From Yuukianura sp. NJ FZ-2021 (Eukaryota): 64,000 nucleotides of DNA. The DNA lies in contig CM102290.1 of the NCBI GenBank assembly GCA_046563655.1, forward strand, positions 1,922,001 through 1,986,000. The letters run 5' to 3'. The stretch's first letter is position 1. Every line of letters begins with the position of its first letter. This document shows positions 12,001-48,990 of this stretch, piece after piece. The notes under the pieces were generated by a model, which was not told where the DNA came from, did no database searches, and saw nothing but the letters and a program-made list of their open reading frames with translations. A program made the position numbers and the translations under genes.

Positions 12001-12423
12001 ACGCCCGTCTCCCAAATTTCACTTGTACGTGGAACTGTCCCTTCCTCATCCTCTACAACTGTAACATCCATTCCAGTCACCACTAAAACTTCTTTACTAC
12101 GACAAGCTGTTCCTGTCACAACAGAATCCCAGAGACCACAACTATTTCAACGTCCACAGATCATCTCTGGCCCAATTCCAGCCAACAGTCAATTCAACTT
12201 CCACCTTGGGAATTCCCCTGGTCCAACTATCCTGTTGACCAATGTACCCAGAGGAAATACGAATGATCCACCGAAACTGATTGTCAACTCTTCAACGGCT
12301 CCAACAACAGGAGTCTATACAATCTACACAACAACAACTACTACGACAACGGCCGCCACGGCTGGACCTCCCAATCCAAGTCACAGTGCTGGGCCGTCGC
12401 CCGGGCAACAGCCGCAGGAATAA
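53..12423 (+). CDS. dom: Helicase domino (SWR1/SRCAP/p400 family SNF2 ATPase), long p400-like isoform; multi-exon, N-terminus lies before the window
   Basis: Spliced ORFs give an HSA region ([14 protein letters not shown]) and a split SNF2 ATPase ([63 protein letters not shown]). These are followed by a PPTPP..DVYID motif, a Myb/SANT-like domain ([22 protein letters not shown]) and a Q-rich tail. Introns are GT-AG throughout. Confidence 0.96.
2332..2563. mobile_element. MITE family 1 (CAAGG termini, 8-bp TSD; P- or hAT-type), in a domino intron
   Basis: CAAGGTTCC...GAACATTG ends, subterminal CAGGTTGTCCAA/TTGGACAACCTG inverted repeat, perfect TSD GTTTGCAT. Confidence 0.9.
4559..4805. mobile_element. 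MITE family 3 (TAGGGAG...CTCCCTA ends) in a domino intron
   Basis: TAGTGAGTCTGCGTTATAAATAA / TTATTTATAGTGCAAACTCCCTA inverted ends; homologous to 13561-13919. Confidence 0.82.
5959..6173. mobile_element. MITE family 1 copy inserted at a domino splice donor
   Basis: CAAGGTTC...GAACCTTG ends, AACAGGTT/AACCTGTT subterminal repeat, perfect TSD GGTAAATC. Confidence 0.92.
7253..7414 (+). CDS. dom: Alternative C-terminal coding segment of a short domino isoform (DOM-B/SRCAP-like), 53 aa
   Basis: The exon starting at 7024 has an internal donor CAG|GTGACA at 7252/7253. If this donor is not used, the frame continues VTTKSPSPP...[11 protein letters not shown] to TAA at 7412-7414. Confidence 0.65.
   Translation: MTTKSPSPPVLEPPKETVVKRSRRQTLKPKEPEPEPVKTGPARSTRARRKTMF
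8781..8819 (+). CDS. dom: 39-nt phase-0 micro-exon of the long domino isoform ([13 protein letters not shown])
   Basis: Flanked by TTTTGCAG and GTGAGT; joins ...MLPQ to VYGPPTPP (exon from 9159) in frame. Confidence 0.8.
8924..9072. mobile_element. MITE family 2 (long ~50-bp TIRs)
   Basis: CAGGTCATTAACGCGAAAAC...TTGGCAAC mirrored by GTTGCCAA...GTTTTCGTGCTAATGGCCTG; related copies at 46678 and 54339; no clear TSD. Confidence 0.82.
10540..10622 (+). repeat. CAA/CAG poly-glutamine coding tracts in the domino tail
   Basis: Translates [26 protein letters not shown]. Confidence 0.9.
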
Positions 12424-12646: not shown

Positions 12647-15600
12647 TTATTCGGGTTTGGATTCTAAACTCGTCTGAAAGAATATCCGTGCGGATCTAAG
12701 GTTGTATCGCAAGAGATGAAACTCTTGTAAATAGTCTTGGACACGCTTAGCCGTAAGCGTATTGGCCTGTTGCAATTTTTCATCACTTTTGGATTCGCGA
12801 ATAATTTGAAGAGCACGTTTTCTCTCTTCAACTAGTTTATGGGTTACGCCACTAAACCACTGTAAAGAGTCAAAGTCCGCATCTTGATCTAAAACTTTGA
12901 GCATATAGGCCAAACCTAAAGTAAGATTCGACAGATTATAGTTAAATTTGACCTTGAATTGTTAATCTAAGATTCTAACATTTAAGTTTGACCTTGTCTT
13001 ATGTCTTACCCATTGGAAATCCGTCATCTGTAAACAGTGTAGAATGTTTTGAGTTCTTGGCCAATTTTTCTTTGCATGATCGCATGTGATCCACGTAGGA
13101 AAGTGTAAGTGCAGGGATGATGACGAAGAAGTTTTTCATGTGAGCATTGCTAGGAACGGAGTAAATCGATTAGTGCAGGCAGACTCAGTATGGAAACTGA
13201 TTAATTAAAGTAATTAATAGTAGAAGCAGTATGCCAGCATACGTTGGTCGGAGACAGGCCTCATGGAAGGCAGAAACGAGGAGTCGGAAGTAGGAAATGT
13301 CCGGAGACTGCTGATGTTGAGTCACATCTCTCAACACGGCTTCTAAATTGATCGCTGCGGAGCGCATTTCATCTTCCAGTGCTCCTCGTTTTCCATTTTG
13401 TTCACTAGTTGTAGTAGTTAAAGGTAGAATAGACTCCAGTTGCCCTGGGTTAATGTCCAGTTCCGGTAGAAAGCGAGAGGCTTGAGCAAGGTAATGACGT
13501 CCGCCCGAGACAACAAGTCGTACAAATCTGTATTAAAAATGTATAAAATGTATTTATTAATAGGGAGTCTGCGTTACAAATGATAGAAGTTATGAGAATT
13601 ATAGAATTTATCAAGTCACGCCTCCTTCCACCCGCTGCCACCCCACTTTGTAACGGTTTCTCCGATTGGTCGATTTCTTATCTGTGACGTCAGTTCCAAA
13701 CTGTTCTCAGTTTTGGGAATTATAGACTGTGATTATAACTTTATCCAAAAAGTTTGAAAAGTTACGTCACCGACCGCTATAAATTCTATAATTCCTATAA
13801 TACTGAAATTATAGACCGTGATTATAACTTGAGGAATCCAGCAAGTTTGAAAAGTGACGTAACCGACGGCTATAAATTCTATAATTTCTATAAAACTCGT
13901 TTATAGCGCAAACTCCCTATAGCTAGGTTACTAGGTAAAAGTAGTAATGTTATAATGCTAAACAAGTTAAATCTAAGAATCTCTTGACAAGAATTTGGTA
14001 AACGGTTGTCTTTTTTACATTCTAAGTTAAACCAAAATAAAAACAAAATTGTTAGTCTTACCCCAGAGTATTTCCAATTTGTGTAATTAGGATTCTGAAT
14101 TGATCTAATGGTGACAGGTTGGATTGCGTGAGACCAAGTTTCCGAATTCCTTTTTGAAACTTTTGGGCTTTGTCATAGGGATACGAGTAAGTAGAACTGA
14201 TGGCACCCGTAGTCATCTCCTGATTTTGTCTAGCAACTTTGAATGCTCGAAGATCCCTCGTTAACTTGGACTTGATTTGCTCATCATACAGAAAGTGTGA
14301 GAAGGAATTGATTTTGGTTTTGAGGAACTGATAGGCACAGTTGACTGTGCTGTTGGACATGCCAAGTCCATGTGTCCGAATGGAATTGGCCAAGTGACGA
14401 ATTCCGACTGTTTCTAAATGCTTGTTCGGTGACTCCACTTGAATGAAGACTTGGTTATTCAGGTTGTAACTGAAGTCCGACACGAACTTTTTAAGGTTCC
14501 GGACTATGGCCAAAATGTCTTGTCCCTGAAAATGTCAAAAAATTGACAGAGATGAATTCAGAAACCAACTTTTTTTTTCTAAAATAGAATTTTTCTAAAT
14601 TTTTTTGGAAATCTAACTTGTTCTAAGGCGTGTCCAGGAAGATGGTCTTCAGAAATATGAAGATTGTACTTGTCCCGTCCAAGAACTCTCATCGTTCCGT
14701 ACGATTGCCAATCATGTAGAGCAACGGAGGCTAAATTGTAGAAGTTCTTGCTCAGATGATATTCTGCCTAGAAAGTATCAAAAGTTGATACAAATTATTA
14801 AAATTTTAGTCTTTAAACATGTTTATCCCGACTTACGTTGAATCTTGCATTGATTTTGTGATCTCCGAGAACAAGCGATGGTAACCTTAGAAAAACCTCA
14901 AAGTCTTTGACTCCAATTCGAAATGGCGAAGAGTCGCTGGACTCTTTATGGTTGTGAAGGTGGGAATGCGTCTGAAGTCTTAGATTATTTTCTAAATCTG
15001 TACAGAGTTTGTCAGTTACACAAGTCTTCAAGTAGGATTCAATTTCACGGACAAAGGCCTTCTGAACATTTCCTTGGGAATGGGGACTGTGACGATCCAG
15101 AAGTTGGAGACAGTCGTCCAGAATTAACTCTACAATAGGAAACTTGGAACTTTCATGTTCATTGGAATACAGTGACGAAAAGTAATTGGAGAAGAGTTGG
15201 CGATGCCAGTAGGCCGAGGAACCATTACACAGAGTCTCAATATCGTCCAGTAGATGTACCATGTAGTGGATTCTGTCCAAAACGGCTTTGACAATTGGTC
15301 TCTTCTCTTCTACATCCAGAAAGCAACGGGCCTTGGACCAATCAAAGGCCACTTGAGCCGCTAGAAGTCGTTTTTCTGACGGGGGGCCCTTAAGAACATT
15401 TTCCAAAATGGCGATGATAGTGACTGCTTCTGTTCGGAGTTCCAAATCAGTTCGGTTGGATTTGTTGAGGTTTGAGAGGATAGAGTCCTTGACGTCCTTG
15501 ACATGACTTAGACCAATGTGAAGTGCTGTTTGAAGAATGAACAGTACAGTGTGACAGATTTGGACATTGAAGCGATAAAAAGTACACTGAATGACCTTGA

Positions 15601-17179
15601 GGAGTTCCAGATGCTGCATGAGATAGGAAACTAATTGTAATGTTACTGGTCGTCCCAGTGTAGCATGAAGGTTCATGATTACTCGAAAGTTGATGTTGAG
15701 CTTTTGAGCCAACTTGACTCCATCGAGCAAAACAGCTGATCGTTTGGCCAAGTCTTCGCGTCGTAACTGACTAATGTCACGCCGGTACATGAGTTCCTGG
15801 AGTTGAATTGCCCAGAAGTGAACGTCGAGATGAATTTTGGCAATTGTAGATTGAATTGTACTGATTTTGGATTCGAGAAAGAGGTGACGAGCCTGTGCTT
15901 GACCTTCCAATAACTTCATGTCAACAAAATTAATTTGATTTCCAATTTGAAGGGAACTTAGAAAAGCATCCGGTGTCCAAATTAAGTGACCACCGATCGG
16001 TATCGCTGGAACTTTTCGAATAACTGGCCAGATACGATTTCGAAACGTTTTACGAGTGTCAAAGGTTAAAAGAGATGTCATCAGCACGTAGAGTCCAGTT
16101 AGAGCTATTGGCCGAAGTTCGTCAGCTCCATTCAATGCATTTTGCTCCAGGGTGGCTTCTTCGGCAGTAAAATAAGCCATGAACTTGTCCAGTAGTGTCA
16201 CGTTCTTCCTACTTCCCTTAAATTGTGTACTAATAAATTGAAGCACATTTTTGAAAAGACGTCCGCCCAAAATGCTTTTATCCAATTCTTCCAATTCACT
16301 TTCTACTTCCAGCAGGCTCTCTGAATCGATATCAAAATTGGCTGAATCCGCCCGTACAGACGTGATCATCCGTTTGTACTTTGTCCAGTGCTCGATAAGT
16401 AGTGGTTGACTGGTTATAATTTCGTCTATGACAATGACCAGAGCTACTAGATTTCCAAGTTCTTGGAAAAGTGTATGAAAGTTGACACCGGCGACGGATA
16501 CGACATGTGGACGTGCATCTTTGAACATGGCTTCCAACTGTAAACATGAATGGAGTAACAGGTTGGATACATTTTCAATAAAGTCCTTCAGTTCATACAA
16601 AAGTGGAAGACAACTAGAGAGAGCTACGTGACCTTCTCCTTCTGTAACGGACGTCGACTGTGGAGGTGAACACGACAGAAACGAACCCTGGTCAGCATCA
16701 AATCCATCTCCGTAAAGCACAAATTGAAAGACAAAGTGTTTCCAACCAAAGGATGTCATTTCCTTGAGTTGACTTGTAAGTGTAACTAGAACTAGCATGA
16801 TTTTCTGCACGTCGGGATTCCCACCGTCCGGTCCAGGAAAGCAAAGGAGCTCTTCAAAGGAACCCGTTTCCAGAAATGGCCCCCATACGATTTGAATTGG
16901 ATCTGTTCGAATGTCCCAAACGTTGTGAGTGAGAGCATAGGTTGAGACGAATGGCTGGTAACCTTTCTTCTGTCTATTATGTTCCGTGGATGATATAAGC
17001 GAGTCTTCTTCAATCCCTCGACCTTGATCGGTAGTACCATTCTGTTCATATTCTACTTCTCGATTGTCCAAAATGTCAATTAGGTGTGAGGAATGATTTT
17101 CCAGGAATGTATTGAATTTCTTCACATAATTTTCTGTCAGCGTCTTGTTACTAACAAGCTCATTTTCGGTTCCTCTCAT
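12647..17179 (-). CDS. WASHC4: WASH complex subunit 4 (SWIP/KIAA1033), multi-exon
   Basis: Motifs include VWDIRTDPI, LENNLRLQTHSHL, FSYNLNNQVFI, HLANSIRTHGLG, DQFRILITQIGN, FTDDGFPMGLAYMLKVLDQ and FDSLQWF. The start is inferred at ATG 17179, just after an acceptor at 17205/17206. Confidence 0.93.
13561..13919. mobile_element. MITE family 3 copy with an internal ~90-bp tandem duplication, in a WASHC4 intron
   Basis: TAGGGAGTCTGCG / CGCAAACTCCCTA ends; the block AATTATAGAC..GTTTGAAAAGT.ACGT..CCGAC.GCTATAAATTCTATAATT occurs twice. Confidence 0.85.
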
Positions 17180-17460
17180 GATCTGCGATAATTCTGCAGT
17201 TGAACCTGGAATAGAAATATAATTTTCATAATCTGATAATTCACGACAACTTGTCGTTAATAGGTATGGTCGTATCGTTATTCGCAGAATTATGATGGAG
17301 TGTGTCTTAACTTCAAAGCCTGAGAGTTGTCGATCGATAAAAATCCGTTTGTAAAATTGGCCTTGACCTACTTGAAAGGAAGACGACACTTGTGAATGAT
17401 GAATTGAATAAAAGTATTTCCAAAATGACATTTTGACTGTACCTTTGCTAAGCTAAATGA

Positions 17461-19129: not shown

Positions 19130-20296
19130 TTAGCGGAGAGGCTTCTTGAGAATGTACAGTCTACGCCACATGAGTCCTGTGATGACTGACAGTGTGAACC
19201 AAGTGACGAAGTACGTGACATGGTCGTTCCTCAATGTGACTCTAGTTTGACCAGGAACAGGAATCGGACCTGTTGGTGGGGGAGCCTTGGGATTCAATGG
19301 ACGAATGGACACCAAGTCCACAAAAACATCAGACGTCCCCAAGTATTCCCCCATGGCAGAGATGTCCCTTGATTTCAAACCATTTGTTTAATTAAAAACG
19401 AAAGGTAGATACTAAGGTTGGCATTTCTGATTACCGGTAGAGCCAAAGGCCGTTTTCACCACGTAAGTTATTGCCCATGAATGGGAGTCTTCTTTCAGTG
19501 GATCTCAATACGGCGATGATCTCTACTTCTTGTGGATCAGTCTCAGGAACGGCGTAGTCCTTGTAATTTCGTGAAGGAATCCAACCACGATTTACAAGTA
19601 CAGCAAGGCTGTAATGTTTCAGATGTAATTAATTTTAAGACACTAGAAATGTTTTGAACTTAAAGTTAAACTGGATTACCTTTGATTGGTGACCCAAAAT
19701 GGTGTCACAACGTGGTACCCACTGGCAGACGGACTCGGAGATGGAGGTTTGGCACCCAGAGGATCCACTGATGAAACTAGTGATCTCGGTCCCATGATAA
19801 GCTGCTTCGAGTAATTGAACTTCCCCTGCATCTTGACCTTGCGGTACTCCAGTTCCGGGAGCTTCGAGAAGCTAGTTTAAGGCAAAATTATGTTAATGAT
19901 TATATTATTAGATTAAGACTAAATCATTAAGCTTACAAACTTACTCATGAACTGGAAAATCCACTGGTTCGGCCAAAACTTTCTTTTCCATTTCCTCAAT
20001 CAAACCCAACTTCCATCTCCAGCGCTTTACTTGCCACACTCCAAGTCCAAATGTAATGACAGGAATCGTCTGCAATTTAAATCAAATTTCGTCAATACGC
20101 TTCCTACAATTAGGTAGTCGTTCAACTTCCTTAAAAATAGTCAAAACGTAAACTTACTCCAAGCAGGATCTTCCCCATTACATCAACCTTTGTAACTGCC
20201 TTATCAGCAAATCCTAAAATTCAAGTAATTTTACAATCGTTCTCGGCTCTCTTGGTTCATTTAACAAGCCAGCAATTGACTTGACAGTTTGTTCAT
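19130..20296 (-). CDS. SURF1: SURF1 cytochrome c oxidase assembly factor, ~6 coding exons
   Basis: [44 protein letters not shown] and [22 protein letters not shown]. The start codon and first donor are uncertain. Confidence 0.93.
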
Positions 20297-20569
20297 GATG
20301 AAACGACGTGTCGGTGGGTAAATAACAAATGTAAAACCTGGTCCTAACTTAATTACACGTTAATTGGCTAAAAGTTGAAGAGATTGATTAAACTAAATTG
20401 GAAAATTGATCAACCCAAAATAAAATTCGGCACGCCAGCCGCCTGCCAAAATGAACTGAAAAAATTACAGCGCAAACAAAAGCCAAAAGCCCGAAACCAA
20501 AACAAAATTTCAGTTTTAAACTTACCGAGTTCCCGCTTCCATCGAAAACTAAAACAATAAGTCTCATCA

Positions 20570-21317
20570 TACCCCAACCCAAATCGAAAAGTGAAAAGGT
20601 ATTCGCAAGTTGCCCCAACAGTTTTAATGTGGGTTTACCAATGAGATGTACACCAAATTGTGTTTAGATTATGTTCAATAAATAAGCTGCACCATAAAAT
20701 AATTAAATCTGCTATAACTGTTGCAGACTGTTAGCGGTGTGCACAAAGAATGACTCAAAGATGATTAGTTTCTTCCAAAAAAAGCGCGGTAAATTTAACT
20801 ACAGCCGACAGACAAGGTACGGAATTGCGAAACTTGTGAAATGGCAATTGACAAATAAACCAAAATTACATTTCGACTTAATTAATTCTAAATCGTCTTT
20901 ATTAATGTAAAATTTAACTGCATCCAAGCTGAATTGTTTTTAAAAAGTTTTGAATATTAAAATCATAGCAATTATCAATGATAGAGTTAGAACAGCATTA
21001 ATATCCAACCTATTAACCACAGTTCCACATATTATTCGAATTGCACTTGACGAAATAAATTGATTTGCCAAAGTGATGAAACGTAATTTTGGCAAAAACT
21101 AATTTTAGTTTAGATTCCAAAATTTTCTTCATCTTTTTGTCTTTTTTGATCTTTTCGTAATCATCTATATTTCTGTAATCTGTAGCTGTACTTTTTCTCT
21201 GAATTCTTTCTGGAAGAGATCAGAAAGAGCATCGTTTATAAAGAATTTTAGCATTTTTCGCTTCTCCGTTGTTAGTTAAAGTGTTTTAGAAACGGAGTAG
21301 TTTAGTGTTTACAAAGC
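20570..21317. promoter_or_regulatory. Probable shared divergent promoter region of SURF1 and PFDN6
   Basis: Head-to-head arrangement. A probable SURF1 5'UTR exon ends at a minus-strand GTAAG donor near 20526. Inferred from layout only. Confidence 0.5.
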
Positions 21318-21888
21318 ATGACATCCGTCACGTCGTCACAAGTAGCCGAAATCAATTCGTTACAATCTCAGTTTCAAACAGAAATTGAAAAGCACAAGTC
21401 CACACAGCGAGGTAAAACATTCATGTTCGTTAGCAAAATTGTAATCGGTTAAACATGATCTAACTGTCTGCTGTCATTTTACTACAGAATACCAGAAGCT
21501 CATCAGTATGGATAATCAGTTAAATACCCAACTCAATGAAAACGGAATGGTAAAAGAAGAGCTGGACTTGGTCGAGAATGATGCTGCTGTTGTTTATAAA
21601 CTCTCAGGACCTGTCCTTCTTCGGCAGTCATTGGTCGAAGCAAAGGAAAACGTTGGTAGACGAATCAAATATATCGAAGGCGAGCTGTAAGGCAACAAAC
21701 AAGATTTCCATTCGATTTGGCCCTGAGATAATGACGATGTCCATCTCCATATTTGATTTTCACTTTATAGGGAACGTAACAAAGACTTACTTGCCAAGGC
21801 TAAAGAGAAGCTCGGAATGGAAAGGGCAACAATTTCTCAGCTGGAAACCAAACTGCAAACTCTCATGACTAAGGCCGGAATGTGCTGA
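21318..21888 (+). CDS. PFDN6: Prefoldin subunit 6; exons 21318-21411, 21489-21686, 21771-21888
   Basis: QLNTQLNENGMVKEELDL..VYKLSGPVLLRQSLVEAKENVGRRIKYIEGEL is the PFDN6/KE2 pattern. Confidence 0.93.
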
Positions 21889-28058: not shown

Positions 28059-28762
28059 CTAGGTTATGTTTGATTAACATAAAATATCTGGCTTAAAGCG
28101 GCAGCATAATTTGTCACACACTGCAGCCGAAGAATTGCTACACGTTGGAGTTACAACGACTGTCGTTAAAGTTTACTTCAACCCAGTTTTTTTTTAATGA
28201 GCTCTTCAAAATGGAAACGTTGACTTGTGAATTTGTTAAGCTCAAAAGGAGAGAAAACTTTTCATTTTCAAGTGTTTTGACATGCAGCACGGTTTGTAAG
28301 GAAGAAGAAACATTATTAAATGCCCATGGTTAAATTATAAATTAAAACGGTAATAACAAACAGCAGGGAGCCTCAAAAACCAAAAAAAAAGTAGTAGTGC
28401 AAAGCGCTTGAACACGAAATTGTTATTTCAAAAATTAATTGCAATTGGGCCATTTGAAAAGGAAAAGTGGGAACATTTTTTAAAATGTTTTCTCGAAACT
28501 GTATAAAACTTCGACATCCGCAAAAGAAAGCAGATTATGGCCAGATTTAAATGTAAACCAATTTGGCGCCAATTTTTTTGCAGTTTGCTGTTTTTGCAGT
28601 TTGCTTGCAGCGGGTAGTTTGCCGTCATTGACCCGTAACGAGTAGAAGTCATTGACCTTTCACTTAAACTTTGTGAGAGGACGATTGACAAACCCATTGG
28701 TTCAGCGCGGGAAGAGTTGAAAAACTGGAAATGTGTTTAAAGTTGACGTTGGTTGGGTCCAC

Positions 28763-32600: not shown

Positions 32601-35309
32601 CAACAACCCTGTTGCTTTATACTCCTTTGAGGTAATGTATGATAGTCAGAATCCATGTTTTACTGTGGGAAAACGCGAAGATAGAACGGGCACTTACGTG
32701 ACCTGGACACGAGATGACCTCAAGACTCTCAAAAGAGGAGACAGGTTTAAAAAATAAATTAAAAAAAAATTCAAAATTTTTGAAAATTTCAATTCCGTTT
32801 TTCAGAATTGTCGAAATCAATGGAACGATTATCATTGCCAAAGGGGTGAACCGTGTTGAAGAATTTTGGTTAGATGAAGGAAGTACTAGCGGGAACGGCA
32901 GCGGAGTGGTTCCGTCGGACGACACGATTTTGGGCGACATGGGTTCGAATCCGTTTCGGCTCGTGGTCATGCGTACTCCGCCACCCCCACCTCCACCGCG
33001 CATTCCAAACCGTGAACTCCACGTAAGTTTTGTTAACGTTTTTGAAAAATTCTTTTTTTAGTTTTAAGTTCGAGAAAAGTGAAAACACTTTTGTCGAGAG
33101 TGACTTTTCACTTTTGTTGGCCCATTTTTTGAAAAAAAGAAAAACGGAAGGAGCTTTTGAACCCCCGCCTCTTTTGCATGCAAAAACACACGAGAGACGG
33201 TTCGTGATTAATCAGTACGTGGTCACATTATTTTGCACTACGTGCCAATTAACTTTAACTTTAACAAGGATGAGACGATTGCTTTAGATTAAAATCACCT
33301 AGTTCTCAAATTCCAATTAGCCTGTACACTCATCATCCATCATGCAAATGGAAGAAGATGCGCAGAGCAAGGTTTTTTGACTTTGATTTCCTTAACAGGT
33401 TGAGTAATACCTCGTGTTTTTTTTATTTTGCAAAAAAAGGGTCTTTGATTTCATGGTATCGTAGTCATAACAATACAGCCGAATTTTTTAAATTTTATAT
33501 ACGAATTGGTACCATTTTTTGGATTGGTACCAAAATTGGTGCCAATTTTTTTTTCTTTTCTTTTTTTTTTGTCAACAAGCGAGGTAGTACCCAACCTGTT
33601 AAAGAAAATTCATTTTTCGTTGTCAAGCAACCTTGCGGAGAAGTGCAGAAGTCTCCTGTGCACAACCGTAATTTCCCTTGAAATTAATCGTTGCAGTAAT
33701 TTCTCATGATTAGTTTCCTTTTCAATGGAAATCATAAAAACATGTTGTGTTGTTCAGATGCTCAAGGAGGAAGTGGCAATTGTGTCTGCAAAATTGGAGC
33801 AAGTGAATGACGAGAAGCGTGAGATGCAGAGTGTCATGGCAACACTGCAGAAAGACCACGCCCTCTGGGAAGAAGCGCAGGAGCGTCTGCGCACTGACGC
33901 TGACAAGTTAGTCAAGGAACGTGACAACCTTCGCACGGAGTCTGTGCGACTCAAGCATCGCATTTCGTACCTCGAAGAACAAGTAAGAGTTGTGTAAAAA
34001 TTTTTTGATTAGTCCAAAAACTAATTAAAATGTGACAGAACTAGAAATTTGAAAATTCATCTTTTGTAAGCGTCTGTGTAATTTTGTTTAACGAATTCTT
34101 AATTTTTTATGCTTCCTTTTTGTAGTGGTGTCCCACAAACTAGTTTTTTTTAGTTCATTTTGCAAAAGTTATTTCAAAAAACGGGCCAGAACTTGCCGAA
34201 TTTGAAAATTTGAAGAAATTGGAGTACTTTTTGTTGCAAGGTTTATTTTTTTTTAAAATTGTTTTTAGGTGGCAGAATTGATACATCGGAAGGACATGAC
34301 GAATGGCATTCATCCGCAACCAATCACAGTTTTTCAAAAAGGAAATCAAAAAACGATTGTTGCTGAAACCACAACAAAAGAGAACAACCAGTGTTCAAAC
34401 AGTCCCTCCAGGCCACCAAGCGTCACTTCCAGGTACTAACTTTTCAACAAAGTTTGTTGACTTTTGATTTTCTTTAACAGGTTGGGTAATACCTCATGTT
34501 TTTTCGATTTTGCAAAGAAAAAAAACTGTATTTTCATTTCAGGGCATCGTAATCATAGCAATACAGCCGAAATCTTTTTTGAATTTTGAATGCGAATTTT
34601 TTGGATTGGTAGTAACTTTTTGTTTTTTCAGTTTTTTTTGTTAACAAACTAGGTAGTACCCAACCTGTTAAAGAAAATTAACTTTTCGTTATCAAGGAAC
34701 CTTGCTTTTCAAAAAAAATTTAAAAAAAAGTTCTTGAACTTTTTTTTCCTAATTTGTAGAAACGGAGAAACCAAGGCTCTGAAAACAAGGCTTTGGGAAA
34801 CATTTCGCCGAGCTACAACGAGTGACGCTCGTTCCGTCTGTTCCGTCGATTCCCGAAGACCGAATCCCACCGAAAACGGGTATTTCAAAAAACGGTGTCC
34901 GGATTCAAAGAAAATCAAGTCCGGTACCAATCCGGAACCACCGCAGAAACCGATTCGTCTGTCTCTTCAAAGAGCCACAAGTACAAATAATGTTTACTCA
35001 ACGGGAGTCGTTGGAAGTCGAGTGGACGGAATGACCTTGACCTCGGGAAGTTCCGGAAGTGGTGACCTCACTGAGGTCACGACTAACCAAGGACTGTTGC
35101 TCAAGAGGTCAAACTACTCTGAACATACGCTTTTACCTGATTGGGCTCCGAGTCATGACGAAGTTCGGTCCGAAGTTTCCGAGAAGAAGAAAAATGGAAG
35201 CGCGGGAAGCAAACATGGAATTCGGTGGCCATCGCTACGACCTGCAAGTAGCATGAGTTACACCATGACGAACAGCAGAGGAAACAATATGCAACAAGTT
35301 AAGTTTTAG
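29622..35309 (+). CDS. Uncharacterised coiled-coil + PDZ-like domain protein, ~9 coding exons
   Basis: In-frame spliced exons start at 29565, 30600, ~30995, 31483, 32590, 32806, 33758, 34269 and 34760. They give MSQLETLEAKMAKIEVSLS, heptad-rich segments and the PDZ signature LKRGDRIVEING. An upstream exon lies at 27380-27476. Confidence 0.8.
33368..33635. mobile_element. MITE family 1 copy in a PDZ-gene intron
   Basis: CAAGGTT...AACCTTG ends; internal sequence similar to the 34448, 48991 and 55960 copies; TSD not clearly preserved. Confidence 0.88.
34448..34704. mobile_element. MITE family 1 copy in a PDZ-gene intron
   Basis: TTTAACAGGTTGGGTAATACCT/AGGTAGTACCCAACCTGTTAAA subterminal inverted repeat; perfect TSD CTTTTCAA. 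Confidence 0.92.
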
Positions 35310-35918
35310 AATCACTTTTTTGAATTTTTGAAAACGAGTTCAAAATTTCAAAAACAAATCAAAATTTCAAAACCTGGAGACTTCCCGGTTACAAACACAA
35401 AAGGTGTAAAACCAGCAGTCAGCAGCACCACGATTTTTTTTTTTGAAAAAAAAATGCGTTCCCGGTGTCCAATCTTGTTCAACTTTATCGTTATTTATAA
35501 AAAAAAAAAAAATAAATAAAATCCAAAAACTTTAAAAAAAAAGCGTTTAAAAAACTCAAACTTATTTGTTTCAAAACTTTCTTTTTCGTTTTCTTTATTC
35601 AGTACTGACGTTTTGATCACTGGAGTTAATTCCAGATTTTGAAAAAAAAATTAATGAAAAACTTGAAAAATTACCCTCGTTTTCTCAAATGAAAAAAAAA
35701 ACTAAACTAATAATTACGGTTGGTGTGACAGAAAAATTAAGTAAGTGAAAAGTTAACTATACGCCTATCAAAATTAGAAGTATGAAGATTACAAAAAATT
35801 TTACAGTTGAGTATCAAAATCAACCAAAACTAAGGGCACATGCTCTTGTATTTTATCTAAATTTTCATGTTTTATCCCAATTTTATCCAAGATATCGAAG
35901 ACTAAGTTTATCCAATGC

Positions 35919-36523
35919 CTATTCCTCATTGACTGTAGCATCATGGTCATCACGGAGTGACTTTTCATAGCGATCCAAAGCCTTTTCGCCTTCACTAATT
36001 GCCAAGTTAGTAATTTCCGATCCAGGGCCAAGGATAACCTTGACTGCCGTTTTGATTTCTCTCGTTGAAATCGTTTTCTTCCCACTGCGTTCAGCCAGTT
36101 GACCAGCCTCAGTTGCAATTCGATGTACAATGTGGTTCAAAATGAAATTGACGCTTTGTAGCGTTGAGCGTTCCAATGTAAAGTCAGGGTGGAGTGACGC
36201 CAGAACAGTGTGAATTCCAGTGGAGAAGTCTTCTTTTGCTGGAGGACTATCCAGCGCAGACGCTTTGACCTTTGGAGGCTGGAAAACCAAAAAATATATG
36301 GAGGATTTGAGTTAATGGCCATTACACGCATGACGGAAACATTGAGTGATACAACTTAAGTTGACCTTGGTAAGTCATGAGTTAACTATGGGATGTCAGT
36401 GACCTTGCAAGTTTGAGCAGGAACGCGCGGTTGACCTTTGGTAGCCAGCAGGGATGAGCAGGTACAACAAATCCGTTCAGCCTTGCCTGGTTTGCAGTGA
36501 GGGGAGGATTGACAGTCGTCCAT
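35919..36523 (-). CDS. Divergent histone H2B variant; histone-fold exon 35919-36279 plus inferred first exon 36404-36523
   Basis: VLASLHPD..RIATEAGQLA..TISTREIKTAVKVIL..AISEGEKA aligns to the H2B fold. A strong acceptor TTTTTGGTTTTCCAG precedes 36279. The first exon (CAAAATG start, AAG|GTCACT donor) is less certain. Confidence 0.88.
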
Positions 36524-37296
36524 TTTGAAAACGCAGTTGAAAAAATAGTAAATTGCACGTTTGTAGAACTTTAGGCTGACACTCCGACTTCGGCTGATGT
36601 CAATCCAACACTGAAAGAGTCTACTGGACACCGGACACTCTGGACATGTCAGCAATACACCCACTTTTTTGTTATACAGTCCTACTCCTACCTGCAGAAG
36701 CCTGTATGTTTGTGGCTTGTGAGATATAGAATTTGGACAGAAATTAGGAATCATGTTGTCACTGTCAGTCGGTGTCAAATGACAAGTCGGAGGTCATTTT
36801 CATATGTTAAACAAGAGTAGAGTTCTTGTCATTTCAAAAGTGAACTGAATTCTTACATGCATTATGCCCAAGTTAACATAAAGACACGAGTAATTGTAAT
36901 GTCGATTTGTGAATTAACATTCGTTACGCTATTTTTTTTCAATTAGATTTCATAAATTTCAAAATTCACAATTTCAAAAATAGATTTTTGGTAGCTGTAA
37001 GGACGTAAGGACGTGGTTTTTGAAATGTCTCAGCGTGCCCCAACTGAAACCAGCAAATTTTTGGAAAGGCGCCAAAACGAGGCCGAAATTCAAATTTTGG
37101 ATTTTGGAGGTTTTTCGGGTTTTTCATTCAAACTCCGGACAAAGAAAATCCGGGTGCTTTTTGAGAAATTGTTGACCGTTGGAAATTGTTCATGCGGAGT
37201 TTTTGTTACTGAATTAAACGCTAATTGCTCATTGTATTTATCTACGAGGTTACCGGACATTAGGACTCGATTGTGAACTGAGTCATCGAATTCGAG

Positions 37297-38538
37297 ATGT
37301 CATCTTCCATGTCATCGGTGGACGTGAAGAAGGTAAAGTAAAGTGTTCTCTGCTTTTATTAATTAACTCATACTGTTATTACGTTATTTTGATGACCATT
37401 TGGTTACTCTATTCAGTAAATGCAAATATAAATCCGAAATTGCATGTTGTCACCTGTTACGTTACCCTCTAATTTATTCCTCTATTACTGTTACAGGGCC
37501 AGGGCAGTGAAGGTTTGACGCGAAAGGCAGGTCAAGTGAGTGGGAGAGGACGTCATGGACCGAAGAATCGGAAACTGAAGCGTCATGCTTCTAAGTTTCG
37601 GGCAATGAAGCCTTTACCATCGGTTTCATCAGGCTACCCCGGTCGCCAATCGCCTGACATTACATCTTGTGTCAGTACTACAAGTTCCCATGCTTATTGT
37701 ACGTCCAGCGCCACTCGCAAATTACCGGAGAACAGTGGAAGTGGGGATGAGCTTACAGAGAAGGAGCCGGTCGATGTCAAAGCTAAGGGTGGGAAAAGTG
37801 TGGGTACTTCTGACGCGGCAGCTTATGATGAGAAAGACTCTGCCGAAGCTATTATGGAGTGGAATCCTGCCAATCGAGCACTACTGTACAAGTTGATGCT
37901 GGATGTGGATTTCACTCCTATAGGTAAATAACACTGACTAAAATTCGTACTTCTTCACATTTTGTTTTTTCACGATCAAAAAGTTGTTTGTCTTCAATGA
38001 TAAGTATCGTAAATTTATATTTTCAGCCCTCCAGCGGAACTTCTCCATGCTGGGAGTCCATGCTAGGTGGTGCAAACTCATCAATAAAAATATCAATACT
38101 ACCGATATCTGGGCACACGCCAATTCTTTATACGATGTGGAAGGACTGGTGAGTCTGCTAAACGCTATGCATTACATTTCTTTCAATAAGTGGATGTTCG
38201 TTCACTCATACATACTCCTTGGTCTTGACTTTGGACACTTTCCGTCAGGTTTGATATGTATTTTGTCTTAGGATTCGTTGCGACGCCCGGATCCAAAGGC
38301 TCCGAAAACGACTGAATTCAAGTTACCAAACAAGATTCAAAGTATGGTTCAAGCCGCATTCGAAGTCCCAAAGTCTGCACATGCCAAACGTGGCCCTATT
38401 AGTGGTAAACCAGCAGCCCCAGTGCCATCTACTAGTAAGGGAGCAGCAGTAGAGAACCCGGATGACAACGACGACGCTGATGTCGAGTCGGTCCATGGCA
38501 CTGGTCCTATTAGTGACCCTGACCCGGACACATTGTGA
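37297..38538 (+). CDS. MRGBP: Divergent MRG/MORF4L-binding protein (MRGBP/Eaf7, NuA4/Tip60 subunit)-like; exons 37297-37332, 37497-37923, 38027-38148, 38272-38538
   Basis: EWNPANRALLYKLM..PIALQRNFSM..IWAHANSLYDVEGL..EFKLP matches the Eaf7 pattern W..E..LF.AM..KPVG.N.HF.M..IW.HL..YD..AL..F.LP. Confidence 0.78.
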
Positions 38539-39120
38539 AAATCTCCAGCTCATTCTCAAATGGTTCTACTGTCTACTCAACTAACTTAGACACCATGACG
38601 TAAAGTTCTGTCTACAGCCACCACCAATTTAATTCTGTCTAAAGCCACTACTAACTAAAGTTGTTTCTCAATAGTTTCTAACCGTCCCTAACTACAAGTT
38701 CTAAAATTATGAGACCCAGTTTTTTCATACACTTCTACTTTCTTGTGTTCAATATCTTAAGATCTTCTATCTTTTACAATTTACCGGGATATTATAACTT
38801 ATTTATTATCATGCACAAGTCCATGTTTATAATAAGAAAGTTAAGGTTTTACTAAACCTGTACAGACTACATTGTAATAGTAATTGTTATTTGTATCCTA
38901 AAAGTTAAATTGTACAGTTCGCAATAGCTCTTCTATCACTTTCCAATAAATTTGTACACCATTTGTTATGTTTATGTGTGCTGTTTCATTCTTTTTATAG
39001 GTCAAAGGCCATCAAAGTGTTTTGACAGATCGTTGACCTGTGACCTCTAGTCACAGTTTTTTGAATTCAGACTTAAAATAGGTGGCGGTTTTTAGATCAG
39101 AATTAGTTTTTAGCTGGCAA

Positions 39121-39362
39121 TAAGGATTAACGACAGTAATTGTACCCGCATATCTTGGCCACTCAGTCGTTTGTAGTGGCTACATTTCCACCACTTTTAG
39201 TGACTACAGTAGGTGGCTACACCTGAGTGGCAACGTCAGTCCAGCCTAGCCTAACCTAAAGTGGCAACATAAGTTTCCACACACTGTAGAAACCCATTCT
39301 AGCCACTAACGATGGCAGGCTAGGCTACACTGTGCGGTTACAATGAGTGTCGTTGAACCTTA
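39121..39362. mobile_element. MITE with ~30-bp imperfect TIRs and internal AGTGGCTAC/CCTAA repeats
   Basis: TAAGGATTAACGACAGTAATTGTACCCGCA versus TGCGGTTACAATGAGTGTCGTTGAACCTTA (inverted). Confidence 0.72.
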
Positions 39363-39653
39363 CTTCAACTTTTTTTTGTCATCATTCATTGAGGAAGCAA
39401 CTTCCTTGAGGCCGTCGGTCAATTAATCACGAATTAATTGTTCAACAACTTGAGCGCTGATAAAGGAAGCGGAAGCGACATCCGCATACTTCCGGTAAGC
39501 AGTATCGAATAGCACTTGAACTCTAGTTTACCTTATTGGTATAAAAGAACTACATATTCCCATTTAATACGTTACGTTTAATAATAAGTAATAAGTACTG
39601 TGCATCTCATAAATTACATTGCATCTGATCTCAGATCCAAAATTCTGGACAAC

Positions 39654-40642
39654 ATGGAGGAAAAGGTCAAAACTACTACTCCCGAAAATCCTCAAGAAGC
39701 ACGACGAAAGGTCGTTCTTCATACAATTGCTGCTCTAACATACGAAGTTGGGTACACCAATGTTCAACATCAAGCACTGGATTTGCTTACAGAGCTATTT
39801 CAAAAGAGTAAAAGAATCCTAAAATACTGATCGATGTTGACAATGGCTACAGATTCTTCTAACTTTATATCTCTCTGATTCATAGAATTAAGTTCGCTGG
39901 CCCGGACTACCATGAAGTATGCTGAAATTGCCTCAAGAGTGGAACCCACTGTTGGAGATATAACAATGGCTATGATTGAGTTAGAACATCCAATTGATCC
40001 CGTTGGTCTCCGAAGCTACAGTCGTCGACACACTCGTCCAATTACTCCTACTCCACAAGGATTAGCGCCGGCTCGAATCCCATTGATACTGAGTGCTGGA
40101 AAACGTAGATGTTTGCCATCCCATATACCAGACTACTTTCCACCTATGCCTGATCCTCACACATACATCCGTACCCCGGTAAACTTGCAATTATCCTAAT
40201 ACTTTCTAAGTAATCCTAATTTTTATTATTGATTGTTTTGTATTAGACTCATAAGCAGCCATTGACCGACTACGCAGCATGTCGAGAGAAGATGTCTCAG
40301 CAGAAGAGAGACTTGGAACGTTCCTTGTCCAAATTCTACTCAAGGACTTTTCCTTGTTTCCTGTTTTTTCCAGACAACAAAGACTTGTTTCCCCTGATGC
40401 TTCCGAAGAACGTTACTTACCACAACGCAGTCATCTGTCGAGATCAAATCTTTGAAGAGGAACAGAACCTTCCTCCTATCAATCTCGTCAAAATTGAGAA
40501 ACCAAGACAACCATTCTCCAACTTCGACAGTAGTGAAGACAGTGACACCGAGACCAAATGGGAGTTGATTGATAATCCATTTCTACGCCCTGCTCGCCCA
40601 CCAAGTCCACTCAAGAAGGCTGGAACCAATCCTACTAACTGA
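39654..40642 (+). CDS. TAF8: TFIID subunit 8 (TAF8)-like; exons 39654-39807, 39886-40178, 40247-40642
   Basis: N-terminal bromodomain-associated histone fold (ARRKVV..ALDLLTE..RVEPTVGD), TAF8_C motif HIPDYFPPMPDPHTYIRTP..REKMSQQKRDLERSL, and terminal IDNPFL. Confidence 0.9.
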
Positions 40643-40801
40643 ACCTGACATGTTCCATTCAGCTTGTGTTCCCACAACTTTGTATTTTACAATGTTCTTT
40701 ACAGTGGATAAGGAGGGCTAAGTTTGATTAATTAATTTCCTAATTAAGTGGGCTTCGTTTTGTACAGGATAATTCTTATAAACGGAAAATTACATGTTAT
40801 G

Positions 40802-43800
40802 TCATGTCAGATCGTCAGCTGTTCCTCTACTGTGTACCATTGACCGGTTTTGCCATAGTCTCATTCTTCGCCTCCGTTTGTCTCCGCCCCCGAAACGGCT
40901 CAGCGGTACTTGAATTTGCAAAATTTTCAATTAATGTATTACATGATTAATTTGTAATTTGATTTCCTATAGGATTGGATACCATTGACGAAATGGATCC
41001 CCTCGGAAGCCCCTTGGGCAAGAACAGACAGCAGCTCCATTCCTAACCTAATTGTTCAACGAAATTGTGTCATTAGCCGTTTTCTCCATTTGACCTTGAG
41101 GTCAAAGGTCAACTTTGGCAGTACCTCGCAATCAGCATTGACTCCACAACTATTGTGACATGGGTTTTCGCAAAAGTTGTTTCTGCAAACTCGCAAGCCG
41201 CCACACTCTCCATCACTCACACACTCACCTCTGGTGCCTACATAATTTGTTCAAAAAATTTTCAAAATTTTTTAAATTTAAAAATTATGATTTGGTGAAA
41301 AGTTATGGACGGAGTCATACATCGGACAAGAGCATTTCCAATGTATCCACTCAAACAACTGCATACTGGACGTTCCTTGCCAGTGTTGTCAAAGCCAGGT
41401 TCACAACGAGCATTTTCTCCACAAATTCCAGGGGTGCAGAGGTCAGCTACAATGTCAAGGTCAAAGTCACTGGATATTGTCGATGGTCAACTTTTTAGTG
41501 AACATTAGTTTTTGTAAAAAGCATTTAATTGTTAAAGTTCTACAAGTTAACTGGATTTATTTGGGAATTAGAACAGCGTGAGCAGTTAAATTAGGATGAA
41601 AGGCGCCATCTTTTTTAGTTTTTAGTTCTTCTGTTCCCACCTGGAGTTTGAGGGCGGCAGGATTCGAACGGGTGACCAGTGTAACCCTGCGCAAAATCAA
41701 CAAATCAATAAGTGGAAATGTAATCTGCGCAGGCGCATATTTACCTTTGGACAAGAGCAAATGGCCTTGTGTGAGGATTTGTCTACTCGGCACTCCGCGT
41801 TCACTCCACAGGCTGGAAAAATGGACATTTCAAAATTTTGAAAAAAAAAATTAGAAAGTTTTTACATTGTTTTGGTCATTTACCTCCAGCACAAGGGTCA
41901 CCACATTTGAGGCCAATACAGGCTCTACGAGACACAGAATTTGAAAAAAAAATCCAAAATTTTAAAAATTTTCAAAAAAAGTTTAAAAACTTTTAACTTT
42001 TTACCGATTTGCAGGACACTCAGAATGTCTAGTGCATTCGGCAAAGCATCTTGTGTATGGATCGCCTAGGAAATCCTTGGGGCAAGAACCTAAACAAGAT
42101 GGCACGTTAATTTAGTTAATTTATAATTATTTATTAATATAATATAATTATTATTATATTATTATTGAGTCTTGTTAGGTTAGTTAGAGGCAGAAGCGGA
42201 GTAGTATTGTGGACTTACAAACAGCTACGTGGTTTCGCACCTAGAAACGAGTTCAACACTTCAGCTCAGCAGGAAATTAGTATTAATTTATAATAATAAA
42301 ACTAATTAATTGTATAATTATATATAATTATATTTTATAATTGTACTTCACAAGTGGCATATTGACCACAGGCCCCAGCACATGGATCGCGGCATTTGAA
42401 GTCAATGCATCCTTGGTGGAAGGCACATTCCCCATCAGACTCACATTCACGACGACACCCATGCAACGGATTTCTGAAATTTTGAAAAAAAATGACACAA
42501 AACTGAAAAAAGTTCAATTTTCAAAAATTGAAGTTACCCAATGTACGATGGAAGACAACTGCAAATTGCTCTGCCGGATTCTACTCGACATTTTGTGTTG
42601 CTACCTGCACAGCAAAAACATCAAACATCCCAGGTATCTAATAATTTATTATATTTTATACAAAATCATATAATATTTACCACACGGCGTCGGATGACAA
42701 AGTTCATCTGAAAAAAAAACACACAACTTATTGAATTTTACCATTTTTTTGACATTTTGGCTTGGCGCTTGAGTTATTCTTTAGTGATTAAATTATGATT
42801 GACAATTGTTAAAGTCAGCCTACTGAAATAATCTAACAAAATTTTGTTAAAACTAACAACGTAACCTTAATTAATTAATTAGTAACTACAAATTTAATTA
42901 TCAACAATTAATTCTACAGCATAACAACTTCTATTCTACACCGTAGTTTGTGAGTTTGCGTTTTGCGATGTTGAGCATTGCAAAGTTAGTTGGTCGTTAG
43001 TACTAATTTACTTTCGTCGTAAATCCTGCAACTTCTTGTGGCGTCTCCTGTCCAGCCAGGGGGACCTAAGAAATTAACAATCACTTTCAAAGTGTCAGAG
43101 GTCACGGGGTCAATGACCTCAAAATATACTAAATATTATAATATAATATAATATAAATATTACAAGAGCAATGGGCCACATGACCACGAACGTCACAGTT
43201 TGCATTGACTCCACAAGCCGACGCACAGGGATTGACGCAAACGTAATTTTGACAGACGTTGTGCGATGGGCATTCGGAATTTGCTAAAAAGCAGAGAACA
43301 AAAAAATAATTTTTTAAATTTTACTTTAACTTTTGTAGTTAAAGGCGTTATTTGAGGAATTGCGGTAACATGAATGCAGTTGATCGTGTATGACCAGTTT
43401 TTGTTTAAAACCTGTTTGAACCGACATCGTTGTCAACTAAAACCTCATTCAAAAGTGTCCGTTCCCTCAGAACAGTTTTTACTTTGAAAAAGTCAATGAC
43501 CTTCGGAAACAAAAAAAATTGGAGGTCAAAGGTCATACCTTCACATTCCCCGCGACGGCAGCCCTTGTAAGGATCCCCTGAAATTCCAATAGCAAAGCAA
43601 CAAAAAAAAAGTTTAAAAAAAAAATTGTTTTTTCAGTCTTCGCTTTATTGAAATTTGACCTCTGTAATGTGGTAGACAACTGCACACAGGGCGGTCTCCC
43701 GAGTTTCGACATCTACCAAATTCAAAATTTTAAATCACAAATTCATAATCGTAATTATTTTAATAGCAATGTTAAATCAAAGCATATTTAAAAAAAACTG

Positions 43801-47267: not shown

Positions 47268-48842
47268 TTAGGAGACATTGTCATCAGCACAACCGCCGCC
47301 ACCTCCACGGGGGTTTGAAGTTACTGAGCAAAGGTCGGCACTTTGTTTAGCACTCAGTTCGTTGTACCATCTACGGAGTCCAGTGAGCACTACACAGGCT
47401 ACAACAAGTGCTGACCCTATGTAGCTATACAGGTCAGGCGTATCATGCAGAAGAGAGATTTGGTAGAAGAAGGACAGCACAATGTCCAGCGATCGAGCGA
47501 CAGCTACTGGACCAGCATTTTCCAGTTGCAGCGATTTCGTCAACAGGATTTGACCTAGGAATCCACAGATTCCAATTCCAAGGCACTGGATCACTGTAAC
47601 CCCGGTCGTAGGCAGAGTGAATCCATCAAGTGCTACTGTCAGCACGGCTCCAAAGATGGCCAAGATCATGGAAAACCAGAAGACAGTAACGGCGTAGTGG
47701 ACATGTTTCAGCTGACGAAGGACTATGAATGCCAGGGCAGTAAGCATAGCTGCGCAGACTCCACAGAAGATCCCTACCATATTCGTCCATGAATTGGTCA
47801 GCTGATTTTGACTTTGGCCTGGGAGTACAGTGGGATCCAGTAGACCAAACGACGGTTTGCTCACCAAAACAACTCCGAGTACAGTCAGCACAATCATGCT
47901 CACGTCAAAGAGAGTACAGAGTTCCCCGATGCAAATACAGGCAAAGAGGGATACGAATACTGGCGAAGTGAAGATCACGGTCGATGCATCGGCAAGCGGG
48001 ATGAGATGGATTGAGTTGAATGCCATAATGAGACTGACCGATCCTAGCGTTGCTCGAGCCAGAAGGAGACTGCGTGACCCGGCAGGGCCCAAGAAGCTAT
48101 TTCCAGATGAAATGATGAGGGGGCTGACTAGGAGGGCCTGAAGGGCCCCCCTCACACAAAGGAGTTCCATCGGATGTAGCGGAGACACTTTGACAATGAG
48201 AGAACTCGTTGCAAAGAAAATACATGAGATGGAAGCTAACAAGATTCCAAGAGACAGACTAGACTTGACCGGGGGGTTCTCTTTTCCGGACCCCCCTCCA
48301 CCCCCCTCCTCTTTTGAACAACTTTCATCCAAGTCCTCGTCTTCTTCACTTTGATGAAGGTGGGCCATCACGGGAGTTCGGACTTTGGCACGACGGAGGC
48401 GGCGCAGAAGTCTATGAACGAGACCTTGCTGAGCCGGACCGCGGATCAACGGCAGCTGATCGCCGAGTTCGTTCGGTTCAAGTCCGAAGTCGGCATTATT
48501 GGTCTCAGAGTCGGTAGAAATTGAGAGAAATGTTGGTCCCGGAGAGTGACCGTCGAGGTCGTCAAGTACTTTCGTTCGGTACTTGAGTATAGACGAAGTG
48601 GACATTGGATCATGACCACCGTGGTGGTGGTCCGGTTCACTCGTGGCATCGATCATGTCTGTCATGGGGCAGTTGGACTGCGCAGAAGTGAGGAGATTCG
48701 TTGTTTCTTCCTGATCCAAGGCGTGCTCAAGGTCAAGGTGACTATCGACGAGACAATGGTTGTCACTAGGATGTTTCCCACCTACGTTATTGGGCTGATG
48801 AATTAAATTAGTGGCATAGAAGGGCGGTTGGTGATGCCACAT
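47268..48842 (-). CDS. SLC35G1: SLC35G-type (EamA/DMT) membrane transporter, intronless CDS, 524 aa
   Basis: About ten hydrophobic segments with IPLADASTVIFTSPVFV, LTVLGVVLVSKP and GQILLTKSLQLENAGPVAV motifs. Confidence 0.87.
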   Translation of the reverse strand: MWHHQPPFYATNLIHQPNNVGGKHPSDNHCLVDSHLDLEHALDQEETTNLLTSAQSNCPMTDMIDATSEPDHHHGGHDPMSTSSILKYRTKVLDDLDGHSPGPTFLSISTDSETNNADFGLEPNELGDQLPLIRGPAQQGLVHRLLRRLRRAKVRTPVMAHLHQSEEDEDLDESCSKEEGGGGGSGKENPPVKSSLSLGILLASISCIFFATSSLIVKVSPLHPMELLCVRGALQALLVSPLIISSGNSFLGPAGSRSLLLARATLGSVSLIMAFNSIHLIPLADASTVIFTSPVFVSLFACICIGELCTLFDVSMIVLTVLGVVLVSKPSFGLLDPTVLPGQSQNQLTNSWTNMVGIFCGVCAAMLTALAFIVLRQLKHVHYAVTVFWFSMILAIFGAVLTVALDGFTLPTTGVTVIQCLGIGICGFLGQILLTKSLQLENAGPVAVARSLDIVLSFFYQISLLHDTPDLYSYIGSALVVACVVLTGLRRWYNELSAKQSADLCSVTSNPRGGGGGCADDNVS

Positions 48843-48990
48843 TGATGCTTTGATGTTCCCTGTGATTTCTTTGGCGCGTTTTTTTCAAATTCTTTGGTTA
48901 GGTGAGACTAACTTGGTCCTATGTTGTGTTAAAAATTCAGTTTGGAATGAATCTTTGAAGTATTTATGATCACTCTAACTTATGTTAGAG

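Follow-up and report, generated by a model that had tools for sequence, protein, structure and literature searches.

Variant-type H2B-like, strongly altered MRGBP-like and complete TAF8 genes adjoin in Yuukianura sp., probably as independent neighbours

The testis TAFs of flies are strongly accelerated in sequence relative to canonical TAFs. They include a TAF8 paralogue, spermatocyte arrest (PMC3469439, PMC4200853, PMC11535153). Among histones, replication-independent variants have solitary, intron-bearing genes of the poly(A) type; a solitary H2B variant is the primate testis H2B.W1 (PMC11514470). In TINTIN, which is tethered to the TIP60 complex, MRGBP is bound to both MRG15 and BRD8 (10.1101/2024.07.30.605802), and joint mutation of W78 and F105 in human MRGBP frees MRG15 from TIP60 (10.1101/2021.08.11.456009). 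Here we describe a stretch of 64,000 nucleotides from Yuukianura sp. NJ FZ-2021 (assembly GCA_046563655.1, contig CM102290.1, positions 1,922,001 to 1,986,000), hereafter the window, in which three adjacent intact chromatin genes occupy 35919-40642: an H2B-like gene on the minus strand, and an MRGBP-like gene and a TAF8 gene on the plus strand (Table 1). An earlier note on this DNA had read them as a germline chromatin module. That reading is not supported, because TAF8 looks ordinary, the complexes concerned differ and the layout is common in arthropods. The three genes are instead probably independent neighbours in a housekeeping-rich region. What remains unusual is that a strongly altered MRGBP stands head-to-head with a strongly altered H2B.

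The families and locations assigned to the three genes in the earlier note proved right. The MRGBP-like gene comprises four exons (37297-38538, +) with an open frame of 283 codons, and TAF8 three exons (39654-40642, +) with an open frame of 280 codons; introns are GT-AG throughout, in 3/3 cases for the MRGBP-like gene and 5/5 over the two models. In the H2B-like gene a spliced first exon is required because the frame of 35919-36278 has no upstream methionine, and the identity of that exon is uncertain, as in-phase alternatives starting at 36754 or 36862 have stronger donors than the GTC of the exon first modelled. With the latter (start 36523), the start codons of the H2B-like and MRGBP-like genes lie 774 bp apart, matching the roughly 770 bp reported before, and the alternatives shrink this distance to 435 or 543 bp. 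Under all three models the head-to-head spacing, taken here from start codons rather than mapped transcription starts, stays below 1 kb. TAF8 stands outside the pair, its start codon 1116 bp beyond the MRGBP-like stop, again as described earlier (1.1 kb). The spacers contain no long repeat or shared element, the H2B/MRGBP spacer and the region upstream of TAF8 having none in common, and no RNA gene was found in 35000-42000 besides one chance-level Rfam match.

Some smaller features of these spacers deserve record. A perfect plus-strand splice donor lies within the H2B-like intron (36360-36376), with a possible acceptor at about 37263, just 5′ of the MRGBP-like start; joined, the two could make the 5′ untranslated region of the MRGBP-like gene overlap the 5′ end of the H2B-like gene, and the arrangement may be due to chance. 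In 39050-39340, between the MRGBP-like gene and TAF8, short degenerate repeats occur in direct and inverted orientation and may be the remains of a small element. Upstream of TAF8, a stretch of 58 bp (39324-39377) is 78% identical to 28137-28194 (E 8e-07) and is possibly a shared promoter element or a small repeat.

Divergent pairs of this kind are frequent in the fly. In Drosophila melanogaster, 31.6% of genes are reported to lie in head-to-head pairs less than 1 kb apart, mostly housekeeping genes, and chromatin-binding and transcription-regulator terms are over-represented among them (PMC2670823). The H2B-like/MRGBP-like pair is like these in both spacing and function, and such a layout is nothing unusual in a compact arthropod genome. 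How often three such genes should adjoin by chance depends on the share of genes that qualify, which was assumed rather than measured (1-5%): the expected number of adjacent chromatin/general-transcription triples per genome is 0.1-0.2 at a share of 2%, 0.4-0.8 at 3% and 1.9-3.8 at 5%. As to conserved linkage, no look-alike stretch was found in the genomes compared and no related locus in metagenome contigs.

The TAF8 gene bears most directly on the proposed module. Its best named match is the TAF8 of Allacma fusca (CAG7836098.1, UniRef A0A8J2PM22), one of two proteins found among 150 candidates. The match indicates that this compact animal genome is probably a springtail's. Aligned end to end, with no domain missing, the window protein is identical to the Allacma protein at 154/266 positions (57.9%) and to the second, unnamed TAF8 at 152/266 (57.1%), these two being 66.7% identical to each other. 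As in Allacma and human TAF8 (PDB 5FUR and others), Bromo_TP is followed by TAF8_C and a C-terminal motif, and the length is 280 amino acids vs 276 in Allacma. Conservation is greatest in the TAF8_C region, where 44 of 50 residues are identical to each of the two relatives. Over three segments alignable with human TAF8, 66/181 residues are identical in the window gene and 75/181 in Allacma, and a relative-rate test of the two with human as outgroup gives 22 vs 13 unique differences (p = 0.13; both sets of counts by eye). The first half of its histone fold has moved further from the human protein than that of Allacma TAF8, the exon 1 segment having 10/35 identical residues vs 18/35. Within the 64-kb window there is no second TAF8 copy.

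By its sequence, then, the window gene appears to be a mildly fast but complete TAF8, and it likely encodes an ordinary TFIID subunit. With its full length and no significant rise in rate, it lends no support to the earlier suggestion of a testis-type paralogue. The Drosophila testis TAFs (spermatocyte arrest, which is TAF8L, and can, mia, nht and rye) have only the parent-gene family in common with it: they are extra copies with testis-restricted expression. The window TAF8 is not significantly accelerated.

We therefore consider it very unlikely that a variant H2B, an MRGBP paralogue and a testis-type TAF8 are co-regulated here for spermatocyte transcription or variant-histone deposition. 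The compact layout would suit such a module, as would the existence of spermatocyte arrest in flies (PMC3469439) and the fact that the histone fold is the fastest part of TAF8. Against it stand the completeness and unexceptional overall rate of that gene, its position outside the head-to-head pair and its separation from the MRGBP-like gene by a candidate poly(A) signal and 1.1 kb. Mechanistically, the three genes can be linked only loosely, since TFIID and TIP60/TINTIN are separate complexes. The postulated connection of Tip60 and MRGBP to the deposition of H2A.Z-H2B dimers is weak as well: in flies H2A.V is deposited by DOM-B and not by DOM-A/TIP60 (PMC7239659, the main text of which does not mention MRGBP), and a study of the human complex concludes that histone exchange by TIP60 finds no support in present data (10.1101/2024.07.30.605802).

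The domino gene, which had been brought into the proposal as a neighbour some 24 kb away, is indeed at about that distance. Its last long open reading frame, assigned to domino by position and without a Pfam match, ends at 12420, which is 23.5 kb from the block, and at least four unrelated genes lie between, including WASHC4, SURF1 and a prefoldin subunit. The earlier note had also remarked that all three genes look more diverged than the domino ATPase. Taken literally this is so, one domino helicase exon being identical to human SRCAP at 98 of 116 positions; divergence beyond the family norm applies to the H2B-like and MRGBP-like genes and not to TAF8. For TAF8 the comparison with domino is uninformative because the TAF8 family is much less conserved, Allacma itself reaching only the 75/181 given above.

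The MRGBP-like gene is a true outlier. In Atlas, 10/10 of the best family matches of its third exon belong to Eaf7 or to its clan, the highest scoring 0.87; the Pfam Eaf7 match of this exon alone is weak (E 0.063). A profile was built from 11 of the 13 loci retrieved by a motif scan, two being dropped (L002, read as fungal-like, and L012, truncated and near-identical to L013). On this profile the spliced model scores 41.8 bits over positions 2-83 of 85, vs 6.9 bits for the best of 2000 shuffled controls, 702 of which scored. As in animal MRGBP and yeast Eaf7 (PF07904; human MRGBP-MRG15 structure 2N1D), the full domain can be aligned. The equivalents of W78 and F105 are kept as W183 and F211, as is the extended motif, in which FxLP(x)2-3 is followed by a hydrophobic residue (PMC8701324) and which here has the form FxLPxxI, and the protein is predicted still to bind MRG15.

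The rest of the domain is exceptional. Its mean identity is 26.5% to a panel of 131 animal MRGBP domains (the 120 best-scoring of 351 profile matches and the 11 motif-scan loci), which, having been picked by score, is biased toward conserved members and contains no named springtail; the median panel member averages 57% and the most diverged 41.7%. Thirty columns are conserved in 90% or more of the panel; the window protein keeps 15 of these and changes 15, including most of the central KPVG-N motif, against at most 8 lost by any panel member. By segment, 6/16 of these columns are kept in the N-terminal part and 9/14 in the MRG15-binding part, a split given here as bare counts. The Eaf7 domain begins at residue 131, behind a 130-residue extension, vs a median of residue 14 in 120 relatives. 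Its terminal branch measures 3.58, the next longest of 132 rows being 1.19, and because this branch is saturated a careful tree of 25 rows cannot place the gene. In the rows open to scoring (130 of 132), a one-residue spacing occurs solely in the MRGBP-like gene and another diverged MRGBP (L005, 82-336); a grouping of the two was marginally rejected by a tree test (p-AU 0.04, 25 rows).

This change may be a drift of the whole lineage or specific to a paralogue, the panel being biased to conserved members and lacking a named springtail. None appears among the best 120 of 351 profile matches; of eight unnamed matches that were looked up, one belongs to a crustacean cluster and six to unnamed clusters, and one had no counterpart. 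Nor was an Allacma MRGBP retrieved in the motif scan (13 loci) or among the profile matches listed (best 120 of 351). With the third exon, a weak query of 40-50 residues, no relative was found among 1.84 billion representatives or in the PDB at E up to 10, and 0/422 pattern matches in metagenome contigs were confirmed.

The H2B-like gene is a genuine, strongly diverged H2B of variant type. Its histone fold is whole and uninterrupted through 119 codons, and all 60 listed PDB matches (the best 60 of 178) are H2B or H2B-containing chains, the best single-copy match having an E value of 5e-17; the exon also matches Pfam Histone (E 7.5e-05). The fold is 41-44% identical to canonical H2B, with 42/95 residues identical to yeast H2B and 37/91 to 8grq_D as counted from the alignments. 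Further differences from canonical H2B are a two-residue insertion ahead of the C-terminal helix, an acidic C-terminal extension and an arginine at the position aligned with the C-terminal ubiquitylation lysine, which we take to be K120 (human numbering). The gene is single copy within the window, and near it no Rfam histone element was detected at E up to 1 and no stem-loop pattern was found. Being solitary, predicted to be spliced, provided with a candidate poly(A) signal and without a stem-loop, it would fit the pattern of replication-independent variants, as exemplified by H2B.W1, and it is likely a solitary histone variant. Among 10 candidates, none of which scored, no close relative of the exon was found, and no orthology to any named variant emerged. 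An Atlas search with the exon returned three unnamed clusters (0.91-0.93) and one H2B cluster (0.91), which are leads only.

Such divergence raises the question of whether one or both of these two genes are decaying duplicates under relaxed selection, with their changes reflecting loss of function. The H2B-like gene lacks a clearly good first exon, neither it (10 candidates) nor the third MRGBP-like exon (1.84 billion representatives) has a close relative, and half of the near-invariant MRGBP columns are altered, as would be expected of decay. Against decay, the MRGBP-like gene retains an open frame across four exons with canonical introns and both binding hot spots at about 26% identity, and the H2B fold is unbroken. 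So much change without a stop or frameshift in either gene implies selection, and we give decay very slim odds.

If the three genes are independent neighbours, as we favour, their roles can be sketched as follows. TAF8 would act in canonical TFIID. The MRGBP-like protein would use its retained tryptophan and FxLPxxI sites to link MRG15 with a TIP60/TINTIN-type complex, its N-terminal helical surface having presumably drifted. The H2B would be produced outside S phase, its message being spliced and polyadenylated; having arginine at the K120 position, it could not bear the usual ubiquitin mark there. Any co-expression of the head-to-head pair would then be an ordinary by-product of a shared promoter region.

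Several observations weigh against this interpretation. In TAF8, a relative-rate test restricted to exon 1 gives 10 vs 2 unique differences with the window gene the faster (p = 0.02, on a split chosen post hoc), and the identity of the histone fold to the two relatives is 45-51%, compared with 66% between those two. Chance triples fall to 0.02-0.03 per genome if only 1% of genes qualify. Fly MRGBP is reported as a subunit of DOM/TIP60 whose knockdown disturbs male meiosis (PMC10216235). Of head-to-head pairs in the fly, 58% are positively co-expressed, and such pairs are functionally more alike than random ones (PMC2670823). So diverged an MRGBP-like gene would be less surprising as a spare paralogue than as the only, essential copy, and that two strongly diverged chromatin genes form the head-to-head pair would have to be a coincidence.

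An alternative is that the H2B variant makes a unit of its own with a specialised paralogue of MRGBP, the two being driven by a bidirectional promoter in a single tissue, for which the male germline is the most plausible, with TAF8 as a bystander. The MRGBP paralogue would then rewire an MRG15 complex on variant-containing chromatin. Each of the two lies at the far extreme of a conserved family, and they stand head-to-head within 1 kb of each other; the better retention of MRG15-binding than of N-terminal columns would fit partner switching, and the co-expression of fly pairs speaks for the idea too. Set against this, the divergence may be lineage-wide, given that no named springtail MRGBP was among the best profile matches, our searches turned up no publication that connects MRGBP with an H2B variant, and the germline expression is argued by analogy. 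We regard such a unit as rather unlikely.

A bolder form, which we hold to be distinctly doubtful, would make the two genes a co-transcribed germline pair, in which an H2B incapable of K120 ubiquitylation and a TINTIN adaptor build a special germline chromatin. In this scheme the MRGBP-like protein would keep its grip on MRG15 and gain a new partner surface and the 130-residue extension. The pair would merit attention because elimination of paternal chromosomes is reported for globular springtails, and chromosome elimination in males for springtails (PMC9292451). Our literature search, which mostly excluded subscription journals, found nothing joining springtail, histone variant and H2B, and among the matches listed for MRGBP, TAF8, Tip60 and histone variants Collembola are not mentioned.

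The surroundings of the block are in keeping with independent neighbours. The window also holds domino, WASHC4, SURF1, a prefoldin subunit, a coiled-coil gene, a dumpy-like gene, an EamA transporter and a myotubularin. WASHC4 (14816-17452, -) has a single frame of 879 codons covering the N-terminal and part of the middle domain, unusually long beside otherwise short exons. SURF1 (-) and the prefoldin subunit (+), at 19133-21687, seem to make up a further head-to-head pair, the two being housekeeping genes without relation to each other. Dumpy-like exons occur at 41-43.7 kb, on the same strand as the EamA-type transporter, a single frame of 538 codons (47271-48884, -) that lies within or beside the dumpy-like gene.

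Table 1. Coordinates of the three genes and their associated elements in the window.
Feature	Position	Strand	Basis or remark
Candidate poly(A) signal AATAAA of H2B-like gene	35594..35599	-	325 bp downstream of gene
H2B-like last exon, 119 codons and stop	35919..36278	-	Histone fold; matches to H2B structures
H2B-like candidate first exon (model of the earlier note, 40 codons), uncertain	36404..36523	-	Good start context; atypical GTC donor
Spacer between H2B-like and MRGBP-like start codons	36524..37296	.	Putative shared promoter, from layout
MRGBP-like exon 1	37297..37332	+	ATG, GT donor, open frame
MRGBP-like exon 2: N-terminal extension, long and of low complexity, and first part of Eaf7 domain	37497..37923	+	Domain starts at residue 131
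MRGBP-like exon 3: Eaf7 core with W78 equivalent	38027..38148	+	Atlas and Pfam Eaf7
MRGBP-like exon 4: FxLPxxI motif and acidic tail	38272..38538	+	Motif definition PMC8701324
Candidate poly(A) signal of MRGBP-like gene, parting it from TAF8	38945..38950	+	Sole AATAAA between MRGBP-like stop and TAF8 start
TAF8 exon 1: first half of histone fold, most diverged part	39654..39807	+	Pfam Bromo_TP
TAF8 exon 2	39886..40178	+	66% identical to Allacma fusca TAF8; vs human 36/94, same as Allacma
TAF8 exon 3: TAF8_C domain and conserved C-terminal motif	40247..40642	+	Pfam TAF8_C

As a module of three genes the block is probably of no importance, and its members are best seen as new variants in known families. 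The MRGBP-like protein is by far the most diverged of the 132 animal MRGBP domains compared and retains the MRG15-binding residues, which makes the gene a natural test of which surface of a small adaptor is indispensable. Should it turn out to be an extra, germline-expressed copy whose promoter also serves the H2B variant, the gene would offer a concrete handle on a specialised springtail germline chromatin. If the germline pair is real and the host is a globular springtail, the two genes would be direct candidates for the marking of chromosomes in paternal genome elimination.

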